IMG/VR virus record: IMGVR_UViG_3300034019_000950
Location: 15,356-79,355 of that record
Reading direction: 5' to 3' (one strand)
From: a virus
Length of the DNA stretch: 64,000 nucleotides
Shown: piece after piece, positions 9,304 to 55,231 of the stretch
How the letters are laid out: the number at the start of each line of letters is the position of its first letter
How positions within the stretch are numbered: the first letter of the stretch is position 1
The notes under the pieces: generated by a model
Databases searched by the model: none
What the model was told of the DNA's origin: nothing
What the model saw: the letters and a program-made list of their open reading frames with translations, nothing else
Program-made: the position numbers and the translations under genes

Positions 9304-9405
9304 CGGGTTTAGTCGTGCAGTGGAACAGTAAAAACTTGCAGTGCGCCTATTGCAAGCGTAACGGGTTGCATGTTACCCTTGTGGTATAGCAATGGGGCCG
9401 ACATA

Positions 9406-10149
9406 ATGAGCCGCAAGACCAGCAACATCACTCGCACCCGTGCCGTCGCGTACCTGCGCGTGAGCACAGACAAACAAGCAGATACTGGCGTAAGCCTTGA
9501 CGCACAGCGCGCCAAGGTGCAGCTCTACGCCGATCTCTACGACGTGGAGCTGGTCGAGGTGGTGGTGGACGCGGGCGCAAGCGCCAAGACGCTGGAGCGC
9601 GAGGGCCTGCAGCGCGCGCTGGCCATGCTGGACAGCGGCAAGGCTGACGCCCTGCTGGTGTGCAAGCTGGACCGCCTCACGCGCAGCGTGCGCGACCTGG
9701 GCGCGCTGCTGGACGGCTGGTTCGGGCGCAAGGACGGCCCGGCGCTGCTGTCGGTGCAGGAGCAGGTGGACACCCGCACGGCAGGCGGGCGGCTCGTCCT
9801 CAACGTGCTGATGTCCGTGGCACAGTGGGAGCGTGAAACCATCGGAGAGCGCACCAGCGCGGCGATGGCGCACATGAAGGCAGAGGGTGCGTACACGGGC
9901 GGGCGCGCGCCCTATGGGTGGCAGGCCGACGCCGAGGGGCAGCTGCACCCGGTGCCTGCCGAGCAGGCAGCCATCGTGCTGGCGCAGCAGCTGCACGCCG
10001 AGGGGAACAGCCTGCGCCGGGTGGGCGCGCTGCTGTTGGAAGCGGGACACCTGCCCCGTATCGGTAGTGCATGGCACGCGAGCAGCATCAGGGTTGTTCT
10101 GGCTGCACGGGTCGCAACGGCTACAAGTGTGGATCAGTCGGCTGCGTAA
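9406..10149 (+). CDS. Serine recombinase (resolvase family)
   Basis: YLRVSTDKQ catalytic Ser motif, KLDRLTRS, ERETIGERT, GGRAPYGW. Confidence 0.92.
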   Translation: MSRKTSNITRTRAVAYLRVSTDKQADTGVSLDAQRAKVQLYADLYDVELVEVVVDAGASAKTLEREGLQRALAMLDSGKADALLVCKLDRLTRSVRDLGALLDGWFGRKDGPALLSVQEQVDTRTAGGRLVLNVLMSVAQWERETIGERTSAAMAHMKAEGAYTGGRAPYGWQADAEGQLHPVPAEQAAIVLAQQLHAEGNSLRRVGALLLEAGHLPRIGSAWHASSIRVVLAARVATATSVDQSAA

Positions 10150-10201
10150 GTCACCTGTGCGCGTTGGAAGCAAACGCCCTATGACTTCTGCAGGAGGGCT
10201 G

Positions 10202-11086
10202 ATGCTCGATCTGCGAAACCTACCGACCAGCGCGGTCATGCGACTGGTCCGCGCCACCCCTCGGAGGGATGGCGCCGGCATCGTGTGGGACTACGACCTT
10301 TCTATTGAGGTTCCAGACGAACAGGCGGCTGCATTGGTGGACAGCTACGTGCCCGGTGCTGCACGAGCATTCGCCAGTGGTGGTGATGGTGCGCGTGGCA
10401 AGGCGAGCACAACCGGGGGCTTTGACCTGTGTGCGTTGGAGCTATCCGCAGAGGACGGGCGTCACCTTGCGCGAGGTCATGCCGAGGTGCGGCAGGCTAC
10501 GGTCAGCGTGACGGCATCACAGGCAGTGCTGGTGGTGCGCGTGCGCGTGCACGGACTGTTGGAAAGAGCGGCGACTGATGTTGTGTATCAGCTTGACGAA
10601 GTGCTGCAGGTGTCTTTGACGACACAGCACGCTGCACGACTGACGGTTGCGGAAGCTGTGGGCGCTGGGCAGCGGCCCGCTCAAAGTGTGGGTGGCTTGA
10701 TTGGCAGGCTGGTTGTCGTCCAGCATGGAACAGAGCTGATGGCTGGCATTGTTGTCCATCAGGATGGAACAAGCCTGCATCTTGAGTCATTGGACGAGGG
10801 CGTGTCGCTGGTGGACCTGGGAACCGGAAAGCCGGCAACGGTGTTGGACGTGGTTCCTCCTCCTGGCGAGGCGATGAGCGAGCTTGTGTCGTTCTACTCG
10901 GTCAGCTGTGCTCATGCCGGTGTGCGTGCAAGCTGGCACGACGTAATCACGGCAATCGGCCTGCTGTATGCTGAACAAAAGCTGCAAGCGTTGCCTGACT
11001 ACAGCTGGCAGCTTGACCCCGAGGTCTGGGAAGCTGCACTGGAGCACGCAATCACAAACGCGGGGCCGACAACGGCAGAGGCGTGA
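10202..11086 (+). CDS. Hypothetical protein
   Basis: Long ORF with GGAGG RBS and upstream GTGCG-N18-TATGAC motif. Confidence 0.6.
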   Translation: MLDLRNLPTSAVMRLVRATPRRDGAGIVWDYDLSIEVPDEQAAALVDSYVPGAARAFASGGDGARGKASTTGGFDLCALELSAEDGRHLARGHAEVRQATVSVTASQAVLVVRVRVHGLLERAATDVVYQLDEVLQVSLTTQHAARLTVAEAVGAGQRPAQSVGGLIGRLVVVQHGTELMAGIVVHQDGTSLHLESLDEGVSLVDLGTGKPATVLDVVPPPGEAMSELVSFYSVSCAHAGVRASWHDVITAIGLLYAEQKLQALPDYSWQLDPEVWEAALEHAITNAGPTTAEA

Positions 11087-11358
11087 CCACCTATCAAGTG
11101 CAGTGCAAGGTGATTTTCATGCTAAACGGTTCGACGCGAGAGCAGGTAGTGCTGGAGCATGGCGACATCGTGCAAGGTGCAACACTGGGGAGCGTGTCCG
11201 CAAGAGATCTGCGCGAATACACTCGCATGGAGCAGCAGCATTCCATCTTCCATAGGAATGAGCGCATCGTTTGGGTGCAAGTGTATGGCGCAGTGCGCGG
11301 ACTGATTGTTGGAAAGCAGTGCGTACCTTCCAATCTTACGGCGACGGTGCCGCTGTGA
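11083..11358 (+). CDS. Hypothetical protein
   Basis: GTGA overlaps with both neighbours. Confidence 0.55.
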   Translation: MTTYQVQCKVIFMLNGSTREQVVLEHGDIVQGATLGSVSARDLREYTRMEQQHSIFHRNERIVWVQVYGAVRGLIVGKQCVPSNLTATVPL

Positions 11359-11651
11359 CGACAAGCAATCTGCCAGAGCGAGCTACGGTCCTATCGCTGC
11401 CGATGGACGACCCGGAAACAAGCGTGCGCAGTCCTGCACTGGCGGCACTGCTGTCAGAAGGATGGAAAGTCATCGCCAGTCTGCCGGCAGCTCGTGGTGA
11501 TCGTACCGAGCTATTGCTGGTGCTGGCACCACCGCGCCCGCACTATGCCCCGCAAGTGCCCCCGGCGCCCTTATGGGCTTACTTGCTTGCTGCGCTGGCC
11601 TGCGGTGTGGGGGCCGCCGCTGGCAGCCTGCTGGCTGGCCTTGCAAACTGA
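11355..11651 (+). CDS. Small membrane protein
   Basis: C-terminal hydrophobic segment LWAYLLAALACGVGAAAGSLLAGL; GTGA overlap with upstream gene. Confidence 0.5.
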   Translation: MTTSNLPERATVLSLPMDDPETSVRSPALAALLSEGWKVIASLPAARGDRTELLLVLAPPRPHYAPQVPPAPLWAYLLAALACGVGAAAGSLLAGLAN

Positions 11652-11666
11652 CAACTGGAGTATTCG

Positions 11667-12407
11667 ATGCCGACCACTGAGCTGAACCTGACGACCGTGG
11701 CGCTTTCTGAACTGCGCCCCGACCCTGCCAATCCGCGCACGCACGATGCGCGAAACATCGCGGCCATCGCAGCCAGCCTGCGAGAGCACGGTCAGGTAGA
11801 GCCGCTGCTGGTTCAGCGTTCCACGATGATGGTGATCGGCGGCAACGGACGTGCAGAGGCCATGCGCTCCCTTGGCTGGAAGCAGGCCCGCGTGGCGTTG
11901 CTTGATGTCAGCGACACGGAGGCTCGCAAGCTTTCCATTGCACTGAACCGCACGGGCGAACTGGCCGGATGGGATGAAGCTGTGCTGGCGCGGCACCTTG
12001 CCGACCTGTCGGCGTTGGATGGTTTCGTTGTCGAGGACCTGGGCTTCAACACGGCTGAGCTGGACGCCTTGGTGGCCGCCTATGTTGGTGAAGTCGATCA
12101 GATGCACTTGGAAGAGCCGCCGCCGCGCGACACCAGCAAACTTCCAATCAACCAGCTGACTGCCGCACAGACCGATCAGCCTGCTTCCCCTGTCACGTCG
12201 TCCGTCATGCCCGCTACGCCCGAGCACACCGTTCCTGCGCCGATGCCGACCAGCAGCGTTCGCCTTGTCCAGCTGTTCTTGGATGATGAAACCATCGACG
12301 GCTTTCAGATGGCCGTGCGCAAGCTTGCCGACCAGTACGTGACCGACAACATCACCGACACCGTGCGTCGTGCTGTGCTGACGGCAGCCGGCGATTGGAA
12401 GGACTGA
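11667..12407 (+). CDS. ParB/Srx N-terminal-domain protein
   Basis: LRPDPANPRTH...IAASLREHGQVEPLLV...IGGNGR, typical of phage ParB-like proteins next to DNA-modification genes. Confidence 0.85.
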   Translation: MPTTELNLTTVALSELRPDPANPRTHDARNIAAIAASLREHGQVEPLLVQRSTMMVIGGNGRAEAMRSLGWKQARVALLDVSDTEARKLSIALNRTGELAGWDEAVLARHLADLSALDGFVVEDLGFNTAELDALVAAYVGEVDQMHLEEPPPRDTSKLPINQLTAAQTDQPASPVTSSVMPATPEHTVPAPMPTSSVRLVQLFLDDETIDGFQMAVRKLADQYVTDNITDTVRRAVLTAAGDWKD

Positions 12408-13300
12408 TGCGGGCGGTCCTACGGACCAAGGTGCCTGAGCATGAAGTGGCTGCATGGAAGGGCAGGCACCCGCAGGCAAGCCAGTTCGACATGCTGGTTA
12501 CTGGTGAGTGCGACCTGTATGGGCCGGATGGATCACCTTTGCTGTTTGTCCGACGCGGCAAGCTGAACAGCGAGGCAATAGAACAAGCAAGGCCGACACT
12601 GCACTGGATGCGTCGCTTCACAAGCGACAACCGCGCTGACTACGCTGGCGGCATTGCAGCCAAGGCCGTCAACGCAGATGGCACAGTGGCGAAGCAGAGC
12701 CGGACATACGATGAGCAAGGCAACGTGATGAGTGTGCCGAGCTGCATTGCCGGCTTCTTTGAGCCGCAAGGCGGCCGGCATCCGTTCTGCAGGGCCACAG
12801 CATTCCTGCGCTCCTTCCCTGATCAATGGGCCAGTCTGCAGCCGATGCTTAGGGACGTCGGCGCACTCTATCGACGCACTGTTCCGCTGCGATGGAAGCA
12901 GCAGATGGAAGTGGTGGACAAGTCAGACCCAGCGTGGGTCATTCCTGGCACACCCTTCACTACGATTACCGTCAACAACACAGTGCCGGCTGCCTACCAC
13001 CGAGATGGTGGCGACCTCAAAGAAGGCTTTGGTGTCCTTGTCGTCTTGTCAAAGGGTCAGTTCGACGGATTCGATCTCGTCGTTCCAGAGTACCGTGTGG
13101 CTACCCACCTGCGCGACGGCGACGTTCTGTTCTTTGACCCGACTGTGTGGCATGGCAACACCCTGCCGACCAACATGGTTGGAGAGAAAGACGAGGACTG
13201 GTATCGCATCAGCCTTGTGGCTTACTACCGAGAGGGCATCGTCGGCTGCGGCAGCCCGCAGGCAGAGCTGCAAAAAGCAAAGGCCAGGGGTGCGCTGTGA
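12407..13300 (+). CDS. TET/JBP-family 2OG-Fe(II) dioxygenase
   Basis: PFTTITVN, HRDGGD (HxD), GDVLFFD..WHGNT (distal His), RISLVAYYRE (2OG-binding Arg); TGATG overlap with ParB gene. Confidence 0.88.
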   Translation: MRAVLRTKVPEHEVAAWKGRHPQASQFDMLVTGECDLYGPDGSPLLFVRRGKLNSEAIEQARPTLHWMRRFTSDNRADYAGGIAAKAVNADGTVAKQSRTYDEQGNVMSVPSCIAGFFEPQGGRHPFCRATAFLRSFPDQWASLQPMLRDVGALYRRTVPLRWKQQMEVVDKSDPAWVIPGTPFTTITVNNTVPAAYHRDGGDLKEGFGVLVVLSKGQFDGFDLVVPEYRVATHLRDGDVLFFDPTVWHGNTLPTNMVGEKDEDWYRISLVAYYREGIVGCGSPQAELQKAKARGAL

Positions 13301-13824
13301 AGACCGTGCTTTACGTCGTCGGAGCGCCCGGTGTAGGTAAAAGCACTGCGCTCACCGGACTACTCGACAAGTGGGCCACCGCGCTTGTTCAGTCCCCAAA
13401 GTGGACATTGAGTGCGCCGATTGCTCTCGTTGGTCACTACGTAAAGGGCGGCCATGATGGCGGCGACACCGTTCCCTACGACGGTGCGGCAGAGTGCTTG
13501 ACGTACATGCGCGATGTTCTGTTGCAAGATCACCGCCTGCATGGCTTTGTGCTGGATGGTGACCGCTTTACAACCTCTACCTGCCGTCAGTTCACTGACG
13601 GCCTACCTGGCATCCGTGTTGTGTGTGTTCATCTACAAGCCAGTGACGCAACACTCACAGCCAGACGGACAGCCAGGGGCAGCACGCAGAACCCAACATG
13701 GATGCTCGGCCGCAACACGAAGGCGGCACGGTTTGCTGACAGCTTCCCCGACGCGGTACGGCTGCAGACTGATGAAATGAGGCCGGATGAAGTCACCCAG
13801 GCAATACGGGAACTGTTGCGGTGA
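13297..13824 (+). CDS. P-loop nucleotide/DNA kinase of base-modification type
   Basis: GAPGVGKST, LDGDRF, ARRTARGSTQNPTWMLGRNTK; GTGA overlap with TET gene. Confidence 0.75.
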   Translation: MKTVLYVVGAPGVGKSTALTGLLDKWATALVQSPKWTLSAPIALVGHYVKGGHDGGDTVPYDGAAECLTYMRDVLLQDHRLHGFVLDGDRFTTSTCRQFTDGLPGIRVVCVHLQASDATLTARRTARGSTQNPTWMLGRNTKAARFADSFPDAVRLQTDEMRPDEVTQAIRELLR

Positions 13825-14864
13825 GCGCATCGCCAGTCGCACTTGCAGAGCCAGATCTTGCGAAAGTGAAAGCTTTGCTTCTGGACACGGCATCACCCGT
13901 ACACGGTGATCCATCGTGTGTAGTGGTGTTGTTGTCTGCGAGCCGTAGTGGAAGCAGCACGGTGCATGACCTGCTGGCCCGGTGCGATGCCGTCGCGGCC
14001 TTGCCAGGAGAGATTGAGCCATACCTGCGATTGACTGGTAACGCGCAAGGCGTAGATGGAAGTAACGAGGTCACTTCCTTCACAAACATCGAAGAACTGC
14101 GCGCGCTTGTCCGCACGGATCTGCGCCTATGGTCGCAACCTCTACCGCTGGTTCATGGTTCTGATTGGCATCAGCGTCGCCTGTTGTTTCAGTCTCCTAT
14201 GGGCTTGGAGCTGGACGAAGGCTGGTATGACGGTTGCAGCAGACCGCCCGCTTCCAATCTCACGGTCTTGGAAGAGCCGCCACTGGTTCCAATAGCAGAT
14301 GCGGTGAAGCCGGGTAGCCTAAACGGCGTCAAACTCATACTCAAAACACCACAACTCGTCTATCGACGTGGGCTGGTGGAGGCGCTGTTTCCAAACAGTC
14401 CGGTTCACTACCTACACCTAAGACGCAGCGCGCCGGGGACTGTCAACGGACTGCTTGATGGGTGGCTTGGTCCACACTTTTGGTCATATCGACTACCAGC
14501 GCCTGATGGGGCGGCGATGCCTGACTGGTGGTGCTTTGATGTGCCGCCAGGATGGCACGCGACACGAGGACTGCTTGATGCCTGTGTGCTGCAATGGGTT
14601 GCCGCCAACACGGCTGCGCTTCTGCACCCGCTGGTGGGGCATCTCCACTACGAGGACTTGTGGAGGCCGCAAGCAGAGCAACGAATAGCAGCCGCTTGTG
14701 GGATTGCCGTTGAGGCACGGCTACGTACAGTGATGGCGACAGAACAGCCGGCTGAAAGACGCTGGGCAACCAAGCGGCCAGAACTTGCAGGCTTGATGGA
14801 GAGGAATGACGTTACACAGCTCATGGAGCAGCTGGGTTACGTGAATGGAGGTGTCCAGTGGTAG
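13821..14864 (+). CDS. Sulfotransferase-family protein
   Basis: SASRSGSSTVHDLL (PAPS-binding loop), LKTP, HLRR...NGLLDGW, HYEDL. Confidence 0.75.
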   Translation: MSASPVALAEPDLAKVKALLLDTASPVHGDPSCVVVLLSASRSGSSTVHDLLARCDAVAALPGEIEPYLRLTGNAQGVDGSNEVTSFTNIEELRALVRTDLRLWSQPLPLVHGSDWHQRRLLFQSPMGLELDEGWYDGCSRPPASNLTVLEEPPLVPIADAVKPGSLNGVKLILKTPQLVYRRGLVEALFPNSPVHYLHLRRSAPGTVNGLLDGWLGPHFWSYRLPAPDGAAMPDWWCFDVPPGWHATRGLLDACVLQWVAANTAALLHPLVGHLHYEDLWRPQAEQRIAAACGIAVEARLRTVMATEQPAERRWATKRPELAGLMERNDVTQLMEQLGYVNGGVQW

Positions 14865-15691
14865 GGTTACAGGTCGTCAACCCGGATGGTCGGCTACGTT
14901 CAGTGCTGGTATCCAGTGCTGACAAGCTTGCGGCATCCTTGCCGGCCGCTGTTCCCGCAAGCTGGCTCGCCATGCCAGACGCAAAGGGTCTGATGGCAGA
15001 AGTGGAAGCATTCCACGACTTCTTGCGATCGCGCTTGCAGCTTGTTGTTGTCGACGTGGCCGACGCAACGCTGTTTGATGGCCTGTATGCGCGCGATTAC
15101 GGCGCCGTCGTCAATCAGACGCTGTATCTGATGCGCAGTCCAGTGCCGCATCGTGCGCCAGAACGAGACAGGGTGGCTGACGAGCTGCAAAGGCTTGGAA
15201 TCAAGGCAGTGTGCGCGCCAGATGATGTCTATGGTGAGGGAGCAGACCTGCTTCCGCTTTCGCAGGGCCGATGGGCAATCGCAACCGGACGGCGCACAAC
15301 ACAAGGCATGGCCTTATGGATGCGCTCGCAGCTTCCATCAGATCAAGTCCTCTATCGAACCAAAAAGCGTGGACCTGATGTGCCTCAGCACCTGCTGGGT
15401 GGCAACCGCATCCTCAACGGGGTGCTTTACCACCGCGCAGATGTCGAGCCACTGCCAGGATGGACGGGCGAGTGCGTCAGTCTGAATGTCAATGATGAGG
15501 TTGGCAGCAAGCTCGGCATGAACTGGCTCGTGCTGGACAGGGCGGAAGTCGTGATGGCAGAGGACTGCCCAGGAGTGCGAGCCATGCTGGAGAAAAAAGG
15601 CATCAAAGTTCATGTTCTGCCGATGGCTAACATCAGGGCAATGGGGGGCGGCTTTGCCTGCGCCACGTTGCCGCTGTGGAGAGATCTATGA
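14858..15691 (+). CDS. Amidinotransferase / arginine deiminase (pentein) family enzyme
   Basis: YARD, EGAD, QHL, GMNWL and C-terminal GGGFACAT with the catalytic Cys. Confidence 0.85.
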   Translation: MVGLQVVNPDGRLRSVLVSSADKLAASLPAAVPASWLAMPDAKGLMAEVEAFHDFLRSRLQLVVVDVADATLFDGLYARDYGAVVNQTLYLMRSPVPHRAPERDRVADELQRLGIKAVCAPDDVYGEGADLLPLSQGRWAIATGRRTTQGMALWMRSQLPSDQVLYRTKKRGPDVPQHLLGGNRILNGVLYHRADVEPLPGWTGECVSLNVNDEVGSKLGMNWLVLDRAEVVMAEDCPGVRAMLEKKGIKVHVLPMANIRAMGGGFACATLPLWRDL

Positions 15692-16644
15692 CAGATGCGC
15701 TTGATCCAACGTCATGGCCCTTGTGGTCTGTGTTCATTCGCTTTGCACGTCGTCAGCTGGAAACGCTCGACTACGACCCGTTCCATCCGATGCTGGTGCA
15801 CCTACAGCGCGGCACGAGTGTTGATGAAGGCTTGTGGTCCAGCTTCCTTTACATGGCCTTCTACAACCTGGGATCAGCCTACTGTGCGTGGACAACAACA
15901 CGTCCGATGCAGGCACTTCCAGCAATAGCGGACCGATGGTCTATCGGAACGCAAAGACGCAACCTGCGAGCAAGCAGTGTTTGCAAGCATGTTGAGTCAT
16001 TGGCATCGCAAGCCAGACCGCACGGGAGCCTCTACAGCTTCTTCACACATGACTTCACTGGTAACGAAAAGGCAGATTGGCTAAGCCTTCTGAACAGGCT
16101 GGAAGGCGTGTGGGGTAACGGAAGGTGGGGCGCTTACACGACAGCTGAGCTGCTACAGAAAGTGAACCAGCTACCAGTGCAGCCAGCAACCCTTGGATTG
16201 GAAGGAGCCACAGGCCCACGAAAGGGACTGGTGGTGCTGACGGGCCTATCAGCGGAAACCAGCACGGAGGTCATGCAGGTGTATGGTGACGCGCTACTGG
16301 CCAAGCTACGCAGCCTGTTTCCAAACCCCCGCATCCCCTGGGCAAGACACGGCATTGACTTCGCAATGACCGAAAGCATCCTCTGCGACTTCTACGGCTT
16401 GACCAAGGGTCGCTACTACATCGGGCGGGACATAGACCGTGAGGCAGGACGGATACTGTCTCAAAGTGGTCGAACTGACGTGGATATGGGTCCCTTGTGG
16501 GCCGCACGCGCCACAGTGTTCCCACCTCACCTGCTTGCTGAGCGACGGAGGACCGTGCTGGACATTGATTATGAAAGAGCGCGGGTCTACAAAGAGACTG
16601 GCCTGCTGGCAGACTACCGTGACGACTTCCCTTTGCTGCCATGA
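15688..16644 (+). CDS. Amino-acid:DNA transferase-like protein (aGPT-PPlase2 type)
   Basis: DYDP, GNGRWGAYTTAELL, ESILCDF...GRYYIGRDID resemble the glycosylase-fold thymine-hypermodification transferases; ATGA overlap. Confidence 0.75.
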   Translation: MTDALDPTSWPLWSVFIRFARRQLETLDYDPFHPMLVHLQRGTSVDEGLWSSFLYMAFYNLGSAYCAWTTTRPMQALPAIADRWSIGTQRRNLRASSVCKHVESLASQARPHGSLYSFFTHDFTGNEKADWLSLLNRLEGVWGNGRWGAYTTAELLQKVNQLPVQPATLGLEGATGPRKGLVVLTGLSAETSTEVMQVYGDALLAKLRSLFPNPRIPWARHGIDFAMTESILCDFYGLTKGRYYIGRDIDREAGRILSQSGRTDVDMGPLWAARATVFPPHLLAERRRTVLDIDYERARVYKETGLLADYRDDFPLLP

Positions 16645-37602: not shown

Positions 37603-38137
37603 TGGGTCCTCCACTACCGAAACGGATGCCAGCCTGGGTGCGTAGCTCGGCACCCATCACCAGCACAAATGCACGCAGCAATGCTGGTCGCAAAGCCGGA
37701 TCGCTTACCGTCCACCACAACACGTCACGCCCCTGCATGACGCGCGTTCCTTCCACAACCCACGGAGCGTGGGTTGGAACCTGCACCATCCAGCCGACTA
37801 AGTAGTATGGGCGTGAACCGCCACCACCACCAGCACGAAACTTCAGAAGGCCCTGCAGCCGTGCGGCCATCAGGCCAGTGCGCTCATGGACGACGTGCGG
37901 CTGACTGGGATGAATGTTGATTGAGCCATGACGCTTTGCGTATGGGTGATCCATGCGGCGCAGCTGCGCAAGGCTGTGGTCATTGCGTGTAAGGTTGGCA
38001 TATACCGCCGTCATCGCGACTCCACCAACCTTGGTCAATGCCCTGCCAGCCGCCGCACGGATGAACTTGTCTTTCAGATCACGGAGGTTGATGACCGTTG
38101 CCTCGATCCCAACCACACGTGTCTTGTCACGTGGCAT
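37592..38137 (-). CDS. Neck/tail-completion protein (HK97 gp10-like)
   Basis: RTGLM...HAPWVVEGTRVM; position. Confidence 0.6.
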   Translation of the reverse strand: MPRDKTRVVGIEATVINLRDLKDKFIRAAAGRALTKVGGVAMTAVYANLTRNDHSLAQLRRMDHPYAKRHGSINIHPSQPHVVHERTGLMAARLQGLLKFRAGGGGGSRPYYLVGWMVQVPTHAPWVVEGTRVMQGRDVLWWTVSDPALRPALLRAFVLVMGAELRTQAGIRFGSGGPNVP

Positions 38138-40955
38138 CCTTGCCGCCCTCACCAACAGTATGCGGCGAGGTCAATGCCGCGTCCAGTGCATCCAGCAAGC
38201 TGTGCAGATCCACACCATCCGGCACCGCCGTCCGGCCCGCGCCCAACACGGGCTGGTCAGGCGCGTGCTCGCGCAGCCACCCGTGCATTGCTTCGACCTG
38301 CGGCATCAGTGTGTGTGCGGGCGCGAGCCTTCGCTGAGCCTCACCAACAAGCAGGCGAGCGGCCCGTAGATGGTAAAGCGCCGCCTCACGGAAAGGCAGG
38401 TAGCCGGTGCCCGCGCAGCGCATTGCGGCTTCGTAGCACTCCCACTGCTCGGCACGTCGCCCGTCGTTGCCGTATTGCAAGCCCAGGCTCACCCACGCGC
38501 CAGGGCTTGCCGGCTCGTCGGCAATCTGCTTGACCAACAGGCGCGTGTACCTTTCCAGCTTCCCCTGCATCGCATCGGGTCCGCCGGCCAGCCCACGGTG
38601 ATCAACCGTAAAGGGCGCATAGCGCACCTGCGGGTGGATGCCGCGCCGACCCAGCTCGGCCATGCCGCGCTCCAAAGTCTCATGGACGCGGAAGTTGAAG
38701 CGGAGGATGCCACCGGCAAGCCGGAACAGCCGAGTATTCTCAGACCAGTTCCACTGCCCGTCTGCTCGCCAGTTGCGGAAGCGGAACATCCACGCCCAGC
38801 TGTCCGTGACCTCAACCATGCGGCGCAGCGCCACCGTGGCCAGGAACGTGCTCTCGTATTGCTCGTCCGGGTCCATCACAAGGCACCACGCGCATCCGTG
38901 CGCGCGCAGCCGGTCCACGCCCGCGTTCCGCGCCGTGCCCAGGTCGTCGTTCAGCGGCTGGTACACCCATTCGGCGCCGTAGCGCGCTGCCACGTACTGC
39001 ACGTCGGCGCTGGGCGCGGTGCCCTCCGGGCCAGTCCACACCAGCACCACATGATCGGCAAGTGCGTAGACGCTGTCGAGGTGACGATGCAGGTCGAACA
39101 GCTGCTCGCCAGCGTGCCACAGCATCGTAAAGCCGATGCCGTTGTCGGGCTGCCACGGGGCCAGCTGCATCCCTTCCTCTCTCACGAGGTGGTCGTACCC
39201 GCCACCGCCACTGGTGCGGCCTTGCGTGAGCACACTGTCAGGCTGCGCGTCCTTCTCGCGGTAGAAACGGAACTTGCGCAGCCGGTCGGCGTGGCGCAGG
39301 TAGCCATAGTGACGGAACCGCAGCGCCGCCACGCGCTTGGCGTTCTCGCCCGCGTCGGGCACGTTGCCGCAGTGCAGGCCGATGGCGTTGCCCGCCTGCA
39401 CCTGCTGCACGCTCGGGTGCGTCACGCGCCACAGGCGGAACCCGCGCATCGAGCTGCGGTAGTCGGGGCCGCACCAGGGCACGTCCACGCGGCACAGGCG
39501 CGGGCTGTCCCAGTGGTTCGCCCAGCCCACGTCGTAGTGCGTGACCAGCGGGTCAGGGTGTCGCATCCACTTCTGCAAAAGCTCGCGGTCAACGCGTTCC
39601 TCCACCACCTCATCGTGGTCCACCGACATCATCCAGTCGGGGGCCAGCTGCAGGCCCAGGCGGATCGCCGCGTTGCGCTCGTCGCGCTCGTTCCACTCGC
39701 CAGCCCACCCGCGCACCAGCACGGGAACCTCGCGCCCTGCACTGGCTTGCGCGAGATCGAAGGCGTACCGCTGCAGCGCATCGGCCTGTGCGTCCAGCGT
39801 GGCGCCCTGGCACGCATCCAACAGCGCCTGCTCGGCGGGCGGCATCATGCCAGCCTGCCACTCCGGGCTGGCCAGCACGTCGGCGGGATTGCCGGTAAGC
39901 AGGATGGCCATGCCGTTCACCAGCTGCGCCGTGCGCCCCAAGCTCGCGCGCAGCATGGCAAGGTCGTTCGGCACGTGCAGCTTGACGCGCCACACCGCAA
40001 CCAGCCGCTGCTCTCGGCTGGTGTACGCTTCCCAGGTGCGCAGGTACGTCGGCAGGTTGGCCAGCCCGCGCTGCGCCTCGGGGAACACGCTGTCCAGCGT
40101 CTGGTGCCCCAGGTGGTGCACGTAGCAGTTCGTCGCGATGGCCATGCGCCAGCCCAGCAGCTGCGCGCGCGCCGCGATGTCGTTGTCGTCGTACCCGCCC
40201 ACGCCGTACTGCGGGCGCACAAGGCACACGCGACCCTCGTGCTGCTCCAGCAGCTGCAGCAGGCACTCGCGGTCATACAGCACGCACAGCCCGGACAGGA
40301 AGCTGGCCGCCATCGGGGTCCACCCGTTCTGCTCCGCGTAGCTGCCGGCGAACTGGTCCAGCATAGTGTCGGCGTCGGCGGTGAAGGCGCTGCCGGTGGG
40401 CAGCTTCACGTCGGGCGCGCGCACCTGCTGCATCCCCGCCACCACGTTGGACACGGGGCCGACCATGCCGATCCGACCGTACCCGGCGACCGGGTGCGCA
40501 GGCGCCTGTAGGCCGTAGCCGGCCACCTCGCCCTGCAGCTTGATGTCGGGGCTGGTGAGCGCGCCGTGCAGCCGGTGCAGCCAGCTCGGCGTCACGCGCA
40601 CGTCGTCGTTCATCACCACCACCGTAGGCGGAAGGCCACCGTGCTGCAGCGCGGCCTGGACGCCAGCGTTCACCGCGCCCGTCCAGCCGACAGGGCCGGG
40701 TAGCTGCACCCACTGCAGCTCCACCTGCTGCGGGCTGGTCGCGTTCGCCAGCTGCACCAGCGCCGACACCTGCTGGTGCAGCGCCTCGATGGTTCCGTCC
40801 TCCATCGCCTGCGGCAGCGGATTCACCACCAGCATCAGGCGCCAGCGATCAACCTGTGTGCAGCTGACCAGCCGCTGAACGCACGGCAGCACGAGGTCGG
40901 GGCGGCCCATCGTGGGCACGATGATGATGGCGTTGTTGGCGTCGTCGTGGTTCAT
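38127..40955 (-). CDS. Multidomain GT2/GT-A glycosyltransferase
   Basis: IIVPT...MNDD...GYDDND; second SVDHDE and third MDPDE DxD motifs; RVHE; helical TPR-like tail. Confidence 0.85.
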   Translation of the reverse strand: MNHDDANNAIIIVPTMGRPDLVLPCVQRLVSCTQVDRWRLMLVVNPLPQAMEDGTIEALHQQVSALVQLANATSPQQVELQWVQLPGPVGWTGAVNAGVQAALQHGGLPPTVVVMNDDVRVTPSWLHRLHGALTSPDIKLQGEVAGYGLQAPAHPVAGYGRIGMVGPVSNVVAGMQQVRAPDVKLPTGSAFTADADTMLDQFAGSYAEQNGWTPMAASFLSGLCVLYDRECLLQLLEQHEGRVCLVRPQYGVGGYDDNDIAARAQLLGWRMAIATNCYVHHLGHQTLDSVFPEAQRGLANLPTYLRTWEAYTSREQRLVAVWRVKLHVPNDLAMLRASLGRTAQLVNGMAILLTGNPADVLASPEWQAGMMPPAEQALLDACQGATLDAQADALQRYAFDLAQASAGREVPVLVRGWAGEWNERDERNAAIRLGLQLAPDWMMSVDHDEVVEERVDRELLQKWMRHPDPLVTHYDVGWANHWDSPRLCRVDVPWCGPDYRSSMRGFRLWRVTHPSVQQVQAGNAIGLHCGNVPDAGENAKRVAALRFRHYGYLRHADRLRKFRFYREKDAQPDSVLTQGRTSGGGGYDHLVREEGMQLAPWQPDNGIGFTMLWHAGEQLFDLHRHLDSVYALADHVVLVWTGPEGTAPSADVQYVAARYGAEWVYQPLNDDLGTARNAGVDRLRAHGCAWCLVMDPDEQYESTFLATVALRRMVEVTDSWAWMFRFRNWRADGQWNWSENTRLFRLAGGILRFNFRVHETLERGMAELGRRGIHPQVRYAPFTVDHRGLAGGPDAMQGKLERYTRLLVKQIADEPASPGAWVSLGLQYGNDGRRAEQWECYEAAMRCAGTGYLPFREAALYHLRAARLLVGEAQRRLAPAHTLMPQVEAMHGWLREHAPDQPVLGAGRTAVPDGVDLHSLLDALDAALTSPHTVGEGGKDAT

Positions 40956-41027
40956 GCTGGCTCCCCGCCTCCTGGGCGTGTGTGGGTGCACAGCGTATCT
41001 CACATCAGCCGGATTGTGAACGGCTGA

Positions 41028-51600: not shown

Positions 51601-51888
51601 CTATCGTCCAGCGAGCAACCTTACGAACCCACTCAAACCACCACGCGCGCCCTCGGGCATGGTCGGCTGATCGCATCCAGGGGTAACACCAACGAACCCG
51701 CCAAAGATGCGCGCCATCAATCTTCCCGTGCGCTGGTCCGACTGCTCTGCTCCAGCCTCCCATGCTGAACGCAACGCTGAAACCAGCGCACGCTGCTCGG
51801 CCACGCTTGCGCGTGCAATCAGCGGTTGTAGGTCGGGGTGTGCTTCCAGCAGCTGTGCAAGCACCATCATCAACCCTGCGTCACCCAT
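51601..51888 (-). CDS. Hypothetical protein
   Basis: Between terL and portal genes. Confidence 0.45.
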   Translation of the reverse strand: MGDAGLMMVLAQLLEAHPDLQPLIARASVAEQRALVSALRSAWEAGAEQSDQRTGRLMARIFGGFVGVTPGCDQPTMPEGARGGLSGFVRLLAGR

Positions 51889-53548
51889 GATACGCCCCCT
51901 GCGTGGCCATGATGTCGGCCGCGACCCTGGTGTATGCGTCGCTAAACCTGTAGTGGTCGTCAAGGTTGCCTTCTGACCACACGTAACGGGTGCCACTTTC
52001 GTTCATCACTCGCTTAGGCGCCTGCATCTGATCGGCCCACCCCGGCACTCGCCAGACGTCCTCTGGCCAAGTGCGGCGCGCCGGATGCACGCGCGCATCA
52101 TCCATCGTCGCGTCCAGCAGCTGCGTGCGGTCTACCGTCACCAGCTTGCGATCGTAGTCTTGCCGCAATCCGTAGTCTTGCGCCCCCACACGATCAGTAG
52201 CGTGGAACTGACACAACCACACATCACAGACACCCGTTTCCGTGCATCTGTCCCTAAGCTGCTGTGCTGCCCGCGTTTCCGGCCGAGCATCCACCACAGC
52301 CACATTCACACGGTAGCGTACAAGCAAGTCATACACCGCGTCAAAGGTGCCCACTTCCCCCGTCCAGCGCCCGATGCGCACGTATCGCTGATCATCGTCA
52401 CGCTGACGCACCACGCAGATGTCTACGTTTAGCGAACGGCTGCCGACGTCGATGCCAGCGACCACCTGCTCATACACCAGCCCCGCATCGCCACCTTCAT
52501 CCATCGGATCACCACAAGCGGCGCGGGTCAGCATATCCATCGTCACCGCGCTTCCTTCCGGCGCGTAGGGCAACCCAAGCACTGATGCATAGAAAGCAAC
52601 GAGCTTGGAGCCACTACCTTGTGCCTCCATCCATTCCCGCCAAAGCGGCCTTAGATCCTGGGAAAGAACGTCAAGCCGGCTGATATGGTAGCCGCGACGG
52701 TGCATATCCGGCCTCTCTGCAACCCACTGGCCACCCTTCGCTTCTCGGTCAAACGGTCGGCCACAACGCCGGCACACGGGTCGCAACAGCCCATCCTCCG
52801 CTCGTGCCTTGTCACGCACCTCCCACCGTCCAGCATCGTTGCGAGTGACCACATTCACAAGCCAGTCCAGTGACTGACGCTCGTTGCAGTGCCCGCAGCG
52901 ATGATGCCACTTGCGACCATCACTTTGATCGTAAAGCGCGGCGACACCCTCACGTGGCAGGGTCGGGTTGCCAATGCGAAACAGCTGCGGTGCAGAGCTG
53001 GCACGAAGCCGGTCACGCGCAAAAGCCAAGTGCTCTTGCACGCACCTGTCAAACTCGTCCACCACCAGCACGTCGGCGCTGAACTCGATGAAGTCGTTGA
53101 CGGTGTTGGAGCCAAGGAACAGTAGCGCGCCTTGTCCAAACCGCTTGTGACGCACGCTGCCGATGTCTCCGTGCGCCAGCTTGCCGGCATAGGCCGGGAC
53201 CTGTTCCAACAGCGGGTGGATGCGGCGCTGCACGAAGCGGTCGCGCAGCTGAAAGCTCGGCAGCACGTATGCGCAGATGCGGCCCGCCCATCCAGCCCGT
53301 TCCAGCGCAAGCTGCACCAGCAGCTCACTCCATCCAACCTGCACACACTTCATGGCGTCAAAGCCGTCAATGCGCGGCGCGTCGCAGTAAAGCTCCACAA
53401 GGTATGGCTTGTCCTTGAAAGACAATGGCTCGCCACGGGTTGTGCGATGGTGGCGCATTGCGATGCCGAGCAGCGGGTACTCAGTGGACAAGGTGTCCAC
53501 CACCTGTGTCGTCGGCGCTTGTAGATCTGTCAGGCGATCACGTGCCAC
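51881..53548 (-). CDS. terL: Terminase large subunit (lambda gpA-like)
   Basis: KCVQVGWSE, DEFD, GNPT, CGHC/CRRC, GIDVG nuclease motif; GTG start overlaps upstream TAG. Confidence 0.88.
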   Translation of the reverse strand: MARDRLTDLQAPTTQVVDTLSTEYPLLGIAMRHHRTTRGEPLSFKDKPYLVELYCDAPRIDGFDAMKCVQVGWSELLVQLALERAGWAGRICAYVLPSFQLRDRFVQRRIHPLLEQVPAYAGKLAHGDIGSVRHKRFGQGALLFLGSNTVNDFIEFSADVLVVDEFDRCVQEHLAFARDRLRASSAPQLFRIGNPTLPREGVAALYDQSDGRKWHHRCGHCNERQSLDWLVNVVTRNDAGRWEVRDKARAEDGLLRPVCRRCGRPFDREAKGGQWVAERPDMHRRGYHISRLDVLSQDLRPLWREWMEAQGSGSKLVAFYASVLGLPYAPEGSAVTMDMLTRAACGDPMDEGGDAGLVYEQVVAGIDVGSRSLNVDICVVRQRDDDQRYVRIGRWTGEVGTFDAVYDLLVRYRVNVAVVDARPETRAAQQLRDRCTETGVCDVWLCQFHATDRVGAQDYGLRQDYDRKLVTVDRTQLLDATMDDARVHPARRTWPEDVWRVPGWADQMQAPKRVMNESGTRYVWSEGNLDDHYRFSDAYTRVAADIMATQGAYHG

Positions 53549-54405
53549 TACAACACCTTCTTTCCACGGTTCATTGCCAATGCAGCCAACACCGGGCGCG
53601 TTGGACGGCCCGGATGATATAAACGCACGTTGCACGTGATGAACTCGCGCTTCTGTGCGCTAAACGTCCTGCCACGCAGCCCAGTGTCCCGCATCCAAGT
53701 CAGTTCTTGCGCGTACCAGCCTGCTGACATCAACTCAGGCAGCGGCTCGGCCTCTGCCACAGCAACAATGCTACCGGCTTCCGCCCACGCCAGTGCCAGC
53801 TTCACTACATCAACACGCGACAACACATGCTTATAGCCGGTTGTGCCTTTATACGGTGGGTCAATATAGACGGTTGCACCGGCTTCTATTGGCACTTGCC
53901 GGGCATCGGCATACACACGGGCCGGCAGGGCGGCGTGCAACACGCGCAAGCGCCGCCACAGCCCCGGTAGGGTCATACCTACAGTGCCCGCACTGCTGGC
54001 ACCCGGCCCCCGGTATAGCTCGTCCCACATGGTCCAAGCGGCAAGCAACGTATGCCGCGCCAGTGCGCGCGGCGTGGCCTGTGCCGTATCTTGCTCTGCC
54101 CGTAGCGCCCGCCATAGGTCTTTCGGCGGCTCGTGAGCCCAGCTTGCCAACACGTCTGCAGCCTGCGGCCACAGCTCTGGACGCGCGTAGCTCTCCAATA
54201 GCAACCGTGCCCCCACGTCTGGCTCGGCCCATACGTATTGTTGCGCGCCCTGACCCGGCATCATTCCGAGCACTCGCAGCGTAGCTTCTGCGAAGTTTTG
54301 CTTGCTGCCCATCCGGCTAACTGGCGGCTTTCGCTCAGCGTCGTGCAGTCGCAAGCTAACAGCAGCCGTACCTGCACAAAGCTCAACGAACATCGGTTGT
54401 TCCAT
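53548..54405 (-). CDS. DNA amino-methyltransferase (Dam/D12-like)
   Basis: FVELCAGTAAV SAM motif, RMGSK, YIDPPY. Confidence 0.78.
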   Translation of the reverse strand: MEQPMFVELCAGTAAVSLRLHDAERKPPVSRMGSKQNFAEATLRVLGMMPGQGAQQYVWAEPDVGARLLLESYARPELWPQAADVLASWAHEPPKDLWRALRAEQDTAQATPRALARHTLLAAWTMWDELYRGPGASSAGTVGMTLPGLWRRLRVLHAALPARVYADARQVPIEAGATVYIDPPYKGTTGYKHVLSRVDVVKLALAWAEAGSIVAVAEAEPLPELMSAGWYAQELTWMRDTGLRGRTFSAQKREFITCNVRLYHPGRPTRPVLAALAMNRGKKVL

Positions 54406-55231
54406 CTACAGGCACCAGCCGCAAGCCATATTCATCACGGCCTTGCGGGATGATGATACCGGGTCGCATCACCAGTCTGTTGCGTGCGAATGGCTGGTAG
54501 TCTACGTGATGGTGCCACCGGCCAAACTTCCATACTACCTTCACAACATCTGGATGCTGGGCCGCAAGCGCATCAGCAAACTCACGTCTGTTGTTGGTCT
54601 GCTTATACAGCTCGTCTGTGTTGCCGCCCTTCATCACCATCGTCGTTACCTTGTCGCCGATAAAGGCGTTGACAAGGATTGTGCACTTCCCTTGCTTCAG
54701 AAAGCGCAGCGAAAGGTCCGTGTCCTCATTGTACCTACCACGCCAGCGTAGTGTCTCACTGTTGGAAAGTAGGATCATTGAGTAGATGCGGGTGTTGAGG
54801 TATACGGGCGGCAGCATGGAACGCTGGGGCGCGAACTTCTGATATTGCAGGCCAGCCATCGGCACATTCTCATAGCGATCCACCAAGTCCTCAACGACGC
54901 GCAAGAAGGTTCCGTCGCCCACTGGGAAGATGGTGTTCTTGTGCACCCTTCTAAAGATGGTGATGTTGTCGTCGAAGATCCAGTGACGCTCAGCCCCAGT
55001 CGCCGTTGCGTGATCCCACACCCAGTTCCGCGCAGGGATGCCACCTTGGCCAAGGTTGGAAAACGGCAGCACGAGCACGTCGCCGCCCCGTGTCGTTGCT
55101 CTGTACGCTTCTTCCTCTTGTGGCTCCACAACGATGGAGTAGGGGATGCCGAGGCGGTGAAACACGCGCGCAGTTGAGCCGGTAGTCGCCCGACCCTTAC
55201 TGATGATGTAGACCGGATACCGCGGGTTCAC
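54383..55231 (-). CDS. TET-associated / base-J-type (GREB1-like) DNA glycosyltransferase
   Basis: YIISKGR, ARNWVWD, WIFDDNI, NTRIYS, RYNEDTDLSL, KGGNT. Confidence 0.8.
   Translation of the reverse strand: MNPRYPVYIISKGRATTGSTARVFHRLGIPYSIVVEPQEEEAYRATTRGGDVLVLPFSNLGQGGIPARNWVWDHATATGAERHWIFDDNITIFRRVHKNTIFPVGDGTFLRVVEDLVDRYENVPMAGLQYQKFAPQRSMLPPVYLNTRIYSMILLSNSETLRWRGRYNEDTDLSLRFLKQGKCTILVNAFIGDKVTTMVMKGGNTDELYKQTNNRREFADALAAQHPDVVKVVWKFGRWHHHVDYQPFARNRLVMRPGIIIPQGRDEYGLRLVPVDGTTDVR

Follow-up and report, generated by a model that had tools for sequence, protein, structure and literature searches.

Known thymidine hypermodifications derive from glycine, serine, glutamate or diamines, and we know of no guanidino-modifying enzyme or sulfotransferase that has so far been linked to DNA base chemistry. 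In this study, we explored a candidate of this kind, a pentein gene at positions 14858 to 15691 of a 64,000-nt window (positions 15,356 to 79,355 of IMG/VR record IMGVR_UViG_3300034019_000950) from a tailed phage. Our findings support a model where the pentein, resembling arginine deiminase (ADI) and dimethylarginine dimethylaminohydrolase (DDAH), probably contributes to making a DNA base not yet described, since an intact enzyme of this type always lies beside a sulfotransferase within thymine-decorating operons. Thymidine hypermodification is itself a known kind of system, although the product predicted here is undescribed. Its routes have been reconstituted for phages M6, ViI and PaMx11 (PMC8989533), as has the diamine transferase route of phage 15599 (PMC13458397). 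In M6, ViI and PaMx11, tailoring enzymes (a pyridoxal phosphate-dependent decarboxylase, a radical-SAM isomerase, an FAD lyase and an acetyltransferase) sculpt the amino acid borne on thymine C5 (PMC8989533). Like the pentein, they are encoded beside a 5-hydroxymethyldeoxyuridine (5-hmdU) kinase and an amino-acid:DNA transferase (AADT); their 5-hydroxymethyluracil (5hmU), however, comes from a dUMP hydroxymethylase, whereas here it would come from a ParB-dependent dioxygenase. O'Toole et al. 2026 (PMC13229309) showed that ParB-associated phage 5-methylpyrimidine dioxygenases (5mYOX) oxidize thymine after replication and are "consistently linked" with P-loop kinases and AADTs. The terms pentein and sulfotransferase are absent from PMC8989533 and PMC13229309, and in the full-text literature, with Iyer et al. 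(2013) outside its coverage, we found no paper tying either protein to phage base hypermodification.

The gene and its ribosome binding site read as follows:

14847..14851, + strand: Shine-Dalgarno sequence GGAGG of the pentein gene, read from the sequence, 6 nt 5' of the GTG at 14858
14858..15691, + strand: pentein, predicted minimal DDAH/ADI-type guanidino-group-modifying enzyme of 277 amino acids (open frame, PF02274, AlphaFold2 model)

Translation starts at GTG 14858; the stop codon, TGA at 15689-15691, overlaps the start codon of the following gene (ATG, 15688-15690). The open reading frame is a genuine gene, not a chance one, with homologues, a HMMER family and a confident model. The first-pass annotation had proposed a pentein with Cys, His and acidic catalytic motifs whose stop overlaps the start of a transferase gene, and both points are borne out: the protein scores 28.9 bits against PF02274 (ADI/pentein, clan CL0197; cut-off 22.8), the motifs MGGGFAC268, PQH178LLG and E127GAD are all present, and the ATGA at 15688-15691 leads into a gene of the PF18724 AADT family. 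Among 5.8 billion proteins, a word-indexed search returned two related clusters only, with identities of 63% and 40%; exhaustive HMMER searching from an alignment of the two retrieved 674 representatives at E ≤ 1e-3, of which 136 reached E ≤ 1e-10 and 12 reached E ≤ 1e-30. Homologues span 33-63% identity and are named "N-dimethylarginine dimethylaminohydrolase" in the databases, or nothing at all. Neither the pentein nor its cassette found a match among GenBank phage genomes (tblastn, blastn), and in IMG/VR no loci emerged from scans with the clade-1 alignment of the pentein, with either of two single homologues or with a third subclade. Species-representative genomes gave only two partial Micromonospora matches (36% over 72 amino acids).

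The predicted structure is confident (predicted local distance difference test, pLDDT, 97.1; predicted TM score 0.93) and displays the five-fold pseudo-symmetric α/β propeller of the pentein superfamily; as modeled, the fold is a minimal ADI/DDAH-type propeller. Among characterized enzymes, the family profile matches Pseudomonas aeruginosa DDAH (PaDDAH; PDB 1h70/3rhy) best (133.6 bits, E 7e-38), followed by ADI (119.7 bits), human DDAH1 (94 bits), ArgZ (77 bits) and the amidinotransferase AGAT (66 bits, C-terminal half only). PaDDAH is also a single-domain propeller of similar length (254 vs. 277 amino acids), and it shares with the pentein the Cys/His/Glu triad, the guanidino Asp, the two carboxylate-binding Arg and the α-amine Asp. 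The equivalent residues, taken from the HMMER alignment and with roles after PMC11659421, are:

D60 of PaDDAH, D74 of the pentein: α-amine ligand
D66 of PaDDAH, D80 of the pentein: guanidino ligand
R85 of PaDDAH, R99 of the pentein: α-carboxylate ligand
R132 of PaDDAH, R146 of the pentein: α-carboxylate ligand
E114 of PaDDAH, E127 of the pentein: partner of the catalytic His
H162 of PaDDAH, H178 of the pentein: catalytic base
C249 of PaDDAH, C268 of the pentein: nucleophile

The substrate-binding set of DDAH is thus complete in the pentein. Conservation was counted over 52 relatives, the same that formed the AlphaFold2 alignment: R99, E127, R146, H178 and N222 are invariant, and D80 and C268 are each kept in 51. 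The 14 phage penteins all retain the catalytic and ligand residues together with an H-[LI]-[LQ] motif; at position 74, the dioxygenase/ParB clade has D and the others have N. What is missing is the second guanidinium-binding Asp of the ADI HxD motif, the pentein reading H178-L-L180. This HLL had been noted before as a departure from the usual HLD; the reading is correct, yet the motif is the family norm (L180 in 45 of the 52 relatives). PaDDAH has no Asp at His+2 either, and in DDAH the gap left by the ADI-type Asp accommodates N-methyl and other N-substituents (PMC11659421). A reading of HLL as degenerate or inactive is therefore rejected, since the motif is shared across the family and resembles that of DDAH.

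Resemblance to known enzymes stops short of orthology. Identity to PaDDAH is about 16-18%, Leu-Leu follows the His where DDAH has Leu-Lys, and the pentein stays below DDAH equivalog level (NCBIfam, 29.6 bits vs. 340 and 27.7 vs. 300); the DDAH context is cellular methylarginine catabolism, that of the pentein a phage DNA-modification operon. ADI (PDB 4bof/2a9g) has chains of 400-410 amino acids with an extra helical domain, 274 residues of which align to the 277-amino-acid pentein, and it has two residues that the pentein lacks, Asp280 in HxD and Arg401 as the gate; against the NCBIfam ADI model arcA/PRK01388 the pentein reaches 19.5 bits (cut-off 414). The amidinotransferases AGAT, StrB1, SxtG and HsvA are also longer than the pentein (350-420 amino acids), retain the HxD Asp and match the profile over the C-terminal half only, at half the score. 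Of the NCBIfam models, dimethylargininase is matched by 51 of the 52 relatives, ADI by 49 and arginine dihydrolase by 31, all far under the curated cut-offs. With DDAH/ADI ligand and catalytic residues kept and HLL DDAH-like, the pentein is apparently an active, minimal enzyme of the hydrolase branch (DDAH/ADI/ArgZ), which it resembles more than it does the amidinotransferases, and by sequence it is orthologous to no characterized enzyme. Thus, where transfer and hydrolysis of guanidino groups had earlier been left side by side, profiles and structure favor hydrolysis, and amidinotransfer ranks lower.

The pentein is the fifth of six translationally coupled genes joined by overlapping stop and start codons. 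Its companions are:

11667..12407, + strand: ParB-N-like protein, predicted dioxygenase activator (PF02195 ParB_N, 30.4 bits; NCBIfam ParB/Noc matches)
12395..13300, probable start ATG 12407, + strand: TET/JBP-type 5-methylpyrimidine dioxygenase, likely a thymine dioxygenase (PF12851 Tet_JBP, 87.4 bits)
13297..13824, + strand: P-loop nucleobase kinase, 5-hmdU DNA-kinase-like (AAA_33, 29.4 bits; Ploopntkinase3, 26.4 bits)
13821..14864, + strand: sulfotransferase-like protein with an SRSGSS P-loop (Sulfotransfer_3, 14.6 bits, weak)
15688..16644, + strand: predicted AADT (PF18724, 64.5 bits, cut-off 26.2; PF18746, 28.5 bits)

The ParB-like and dioxygenase genes meet at TGATG, the stop TGA (12405-12407) overlapping the ATG at 12407; the kinase start GTG 13297 overlaps the dioxygenase stop (GTGA), a further GTGA joins kinase and sulfotransferase, and sulfotransferase and pentein overlap by 7 nt. 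The cassette holds the constituents of a thymidine hypermodification cluster, a source of 5-hydroxymethylpyrimidine, a P-loop nucleobase kinase and an AADT, all co-located. Likewise, as in ParB-dependent thymine dioxygenase pathways, the 5mYOX adjoins a ParB-N homologue and a C5-methyltransferase is absent. Since neither a C5-methyltransferase (PF00145) nor a ThyA-like gene (PF00303) was detected in the whole phage, the likely substrate is thymine, oxidized to 5hmU. By analogy with the reconstituted routes (PMC8989533; PMC13458397), thymine would be converted to 5hmU and 5-phosphomethyl-U, with the phosphate then displaced by an amine. The AADT profile found no match among solved structures. 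Just 5' of the ParB-like gene, a small open reading frame (window 11262-11648, + strand) shows weak conservation in a related contig, L007 (40% over 40 amino acids), and may be part of the cassette or of its regulation.

Comparison of loci shows which of these genes travel together. Scanning metagenomes recovered four loci. Among the loci compared, L007, a 79,172-bp contig also present in IMG/VR, is a distant relative whose replication genes and cassette are 25-45% identical to those of the window; it has the same six genes in identical order and the same ATGA between pentein and AADT. Its ParB-like orthologue is 41% identical and equivalently placed, and its kinase orthologue scores above the Ploopntkinase3 cut-off (29.1 bits). 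In L005 and L006 the pentein precedes an AADT with overlapping codons, L005 also having a sulfotransferase upstream, and an ATGA or TTGA overlap is found in L005, L006 and L007 alike. The AADT is the last gene of the conserved block, 42-60% identical to its orthologues in L007 and L005. An AADT scan of IMG/VR added L009, a 188-kb myovirus-like contig with the order AADT, sulfotransferase, pentein and no dioxygenase at that place, and nine more viral contigs came from scanning with a second subclade of the pentein, followed by the sulfotransferase. Custom hidden Markov models place a pentein immediately downstream of the sulfotransferase in each of these nine that could be checked; with the other loci counted in, the pairing is seen in 12 of 12 (the window, L005, L007, L009, L011, L012, L015-L018, L021/L022 and L023).

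The AADT is far less constant, being adjacent in five loci only (the window, L005, L006, L007 and L009); PF18724 was not detected in five other records, in sequence portions covering 18-70% of each. A second type of module (L011, L012, L013, L015-L018 and L022, e.g. L022:3569-9119), in which no PF18724 AADT was detected, comprises a small P-loop protein, the sulfotransferase, the pentein, a divergent ThyA-like paralogue, an APH-like kinase and often a second ThyA-like gene, flanked by genes for ribonucleotide reductase, dUTPase and a DnaB-type helicase. Here the divergent ThyA-like protein might stand in for the AADT in transferring a group to C5; comparison of the small P-loop protein with the window kinase, as its possible orthologue, gave a probability of 36%. 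A 338-amino-acid neighbor in L012 was considered as a hidden AADT and rejected (hhalign probability 0.5%). Given a constant pairing and variable AADT or ThyA-like partners, the functional unit is sulfotransferase plus pentein, always among genes that make or activate 5-hydroxymethylpyrimidines, with the AADT as one of at least two alternative partners. Thus, the coupling to the AADT proposed in the first-pass annotation stands for a guanidino-group enzyme in an AADT cassette, but the constant partner is the sulfotransferase.

Orthologues of the sulfotransferase match Sulfotransfer_3 more clearly than does the window protein (27.1 bits in L007, 48.6 bits in L009). Among solved structures, its best matches are to sulfotransferase domains of the "activating" kind, in the olefin synthase OLS (E 7e-4) and in CurM (E 2e-3). 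The AlphaFold2 model is poor (pLDDT 60.6) and its Foldseek matches are weak; the top ones are all sulfotransferases, with OLS and CurM at ranks 1 and 3. As these best solved relatives are activating domains, the enzyme could alternatively make 5-sulfooxymethyl-U as a leaving group, a suggestion for which sequence and model give weak grounds. Regarding supply of the sulfate donor 3'-phosphoadenosine-5'-phosphosulfate, no APS-kinase (PF01583) was found in the phage.

How might the pair act? Our preferred reading, to which we give a probability of about 0.3, is that the pentein is a guanidino hydrolase paired with the sulfotransferase and acting on a free arginine-derived donor ahead of its transfer by the AADT to thymine C5. 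The substrate would presumably be an L-arginine-type amino acid, with Arg99 and Arg146 holding the α-carboxylate, Asp74 the α-amine and Asp80 the guanidino group; Cys268, His178 and Glu127 would then convert guanidino to ureido (citrulline-type) through a covalent thiouronium intermediate, hydrolysis being inferred here over transfer. The sulfotransferase, its target presumably the same molecule, would add sulfate, so that the two enzymes jointly make a non-standard arginine-derived donor. Meanwhile, the ParB-activated dioxygenase would oxidize thymine to 5hmU and the P-loop kinase would yield 5-phosphomethyl-U, to which the AADT would attach the donor, its amine displacing the phosphate on the activated C5-methyl of thymine. 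Action on a free donor rather than on DNA is favored by the strictly conserved α-amine ligand, by a protein that is not basic (isoelectric point 7.1; relatives 5.3-8.6) and by the portability of the pair between very different cassettes.

Several points weigh against this reading. The enzyme's function is deduced from sequence and a model, and neither sequence nor fold rigorously separates hydrolase from amidinotransferase. With Leu in place of the second Asp of the ADI HxD motif, the substrate may be something other than plain arginine. In most of the loci with both sulfotransferase and pentein, the available sequence contains no PF18724 AADT, so the pair may not need one. Moreover, the donors of known thymine hypermodifications are ordinary host metabolites, and all characterized tailoring enzymes of those clusters use the DNA-attached amino acid (PMC8989533), a precedent which favors the same guanidino-to-ureido hydrolysis after transfer and makes it nearly as likely as free-donor action. 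On such a route, possible though doubtful, the AADT would install L-arginine through its α-amine, the pentein would deiminate the DNA-tethered side chain, and the sulfotransferase would afterwards decorate the product, perhaps to an N-sulfo-ureido group. Host metabolism supplies arginine abundantly, and pentein and AADT are translationally coupled in all four loci of the window clade. In ADI and DDAH structures the amino-acid head group sits at the pocket entrance; a tether through the α-nitrogen is therefore sterically conceivable. Yet the strict conservation of the D/N74 ligand recalls enzymes that use free amino acids, and the protein, again, is not basic.

The gap at the HxD Asp also keeps other pentein chemistry in play, whether DDAH-like cleavage of an arginine that bears a sulfo, phospho or alkyl group on N-ω, with loss of an amine or sulfamate, or a full dihydrolase reaction whose ornithine-type amine would then be N-sulfonated by the sulfotransferase. 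We regard this as unlikely: a DNA-tethered leaving group would need to occupy the closed pocket bottom, judging from known pentein structures. Equally improbable, in our view, is an amidinotransferase whose Cys accepts the amidino group of arginine and hands it on, either to an amine on DNA or to a free donor, giving a cationic guanidino base, the second option of the first-pass annotation. Here the profile scores count against transfer, AGAT reaching half the value of DDAH or ADI; the NCBIfam matches are all to hydrolases, and AGAT retains the HxD Asp that the pentein family lacks. Finally, the pentein might have no part in DNA modification, serving auxiliary arginine catabolism for host takeover or, like the RESC5 pentein of trypanosomes, a non-catalytic scaffold. 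This is very hard to reconcile with catalytic residues that are all conserved and with a gene that sits inside overlapping-gene modification cassettes of at least 12 phage lineages, traveling with the sulfotransferase.

The phage and its relatives carry further genes of interest. The 79,355-bp record is a metagenomic genome of 100% CheckV completeness, most of it covered by the window, which encodes the portal, prohead protease, terminase and tape-measure proteins of a tailed phage; the replication module comprises a helicase, a PD-(D/E)XK nuclease, an AAA_24 protein and a primase-helicase. Between primase-helicase and modification cassette lies a serine recombinase (window 9370-10149, + strand; Resolvase, 123.3 bits), its end overlapped by a 399-amino-acid open reading frame with no family match (9887-11086). 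A TET-associated glycosyltransferase (window 54383-55231, - strand; PF20691, 135.7 bits) neighbors the large subunit of the terminase (51881-53635), some 40 kb away from the dioxygenase; one 5-hydroxymethylpyrimidine may therefore feed two decorations, glycosylation and amino-acid transfer. Within the structural gene block, a 958-amino-acid protein (window 38127-41003, - strand) has an N-terminal family-2 glycosyltransferase domain (36.5 bits). L009 encodes a short adenylosuccinate-synthetase homologue (L009:2294-3367, 357 amino acids; PF00709, 182.5 bits), a possible PurZ, so that this phage may combine 2-aminoadenine with thymine hypermodification. A few kb upstream of its module of sulfotransferase and pentein, L012 encodes an Fpg/Nei-type DNA glycosylase (L012:1299-2114; PF01149, 53.2 bits) as well as a zeta-toxin-like kinase (L012:2579-3283).

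Overall, we tentatively suggest, as a proposition still short of even odds, that sulfotransferase and pentein together form the core of a widespread, as yet undescribed branch of phage pyrimidine hypermodification, yielding a new base with an arginine-derived ureido or guanidino chain, a sulfate, or both, and pluggable into AADT or ThyA-like/APH-kinase cassettes. If true, this would be the first sulfated DNA nucleobase, and the pair would fit post-replicative cassettes built on AADT as well as those built on ThyA-like proteins and APH kinases. The enzymes of the cassette could serve as tools for site-selective DNA functionalization. Found in at least 12 phage lineages, phages of 79 kb to 188 kb included, the module predicts new base chemistry, be it ureido, guanidino or sulfate, and the predicted base would affect how these phages evade restriction and CRISPR.
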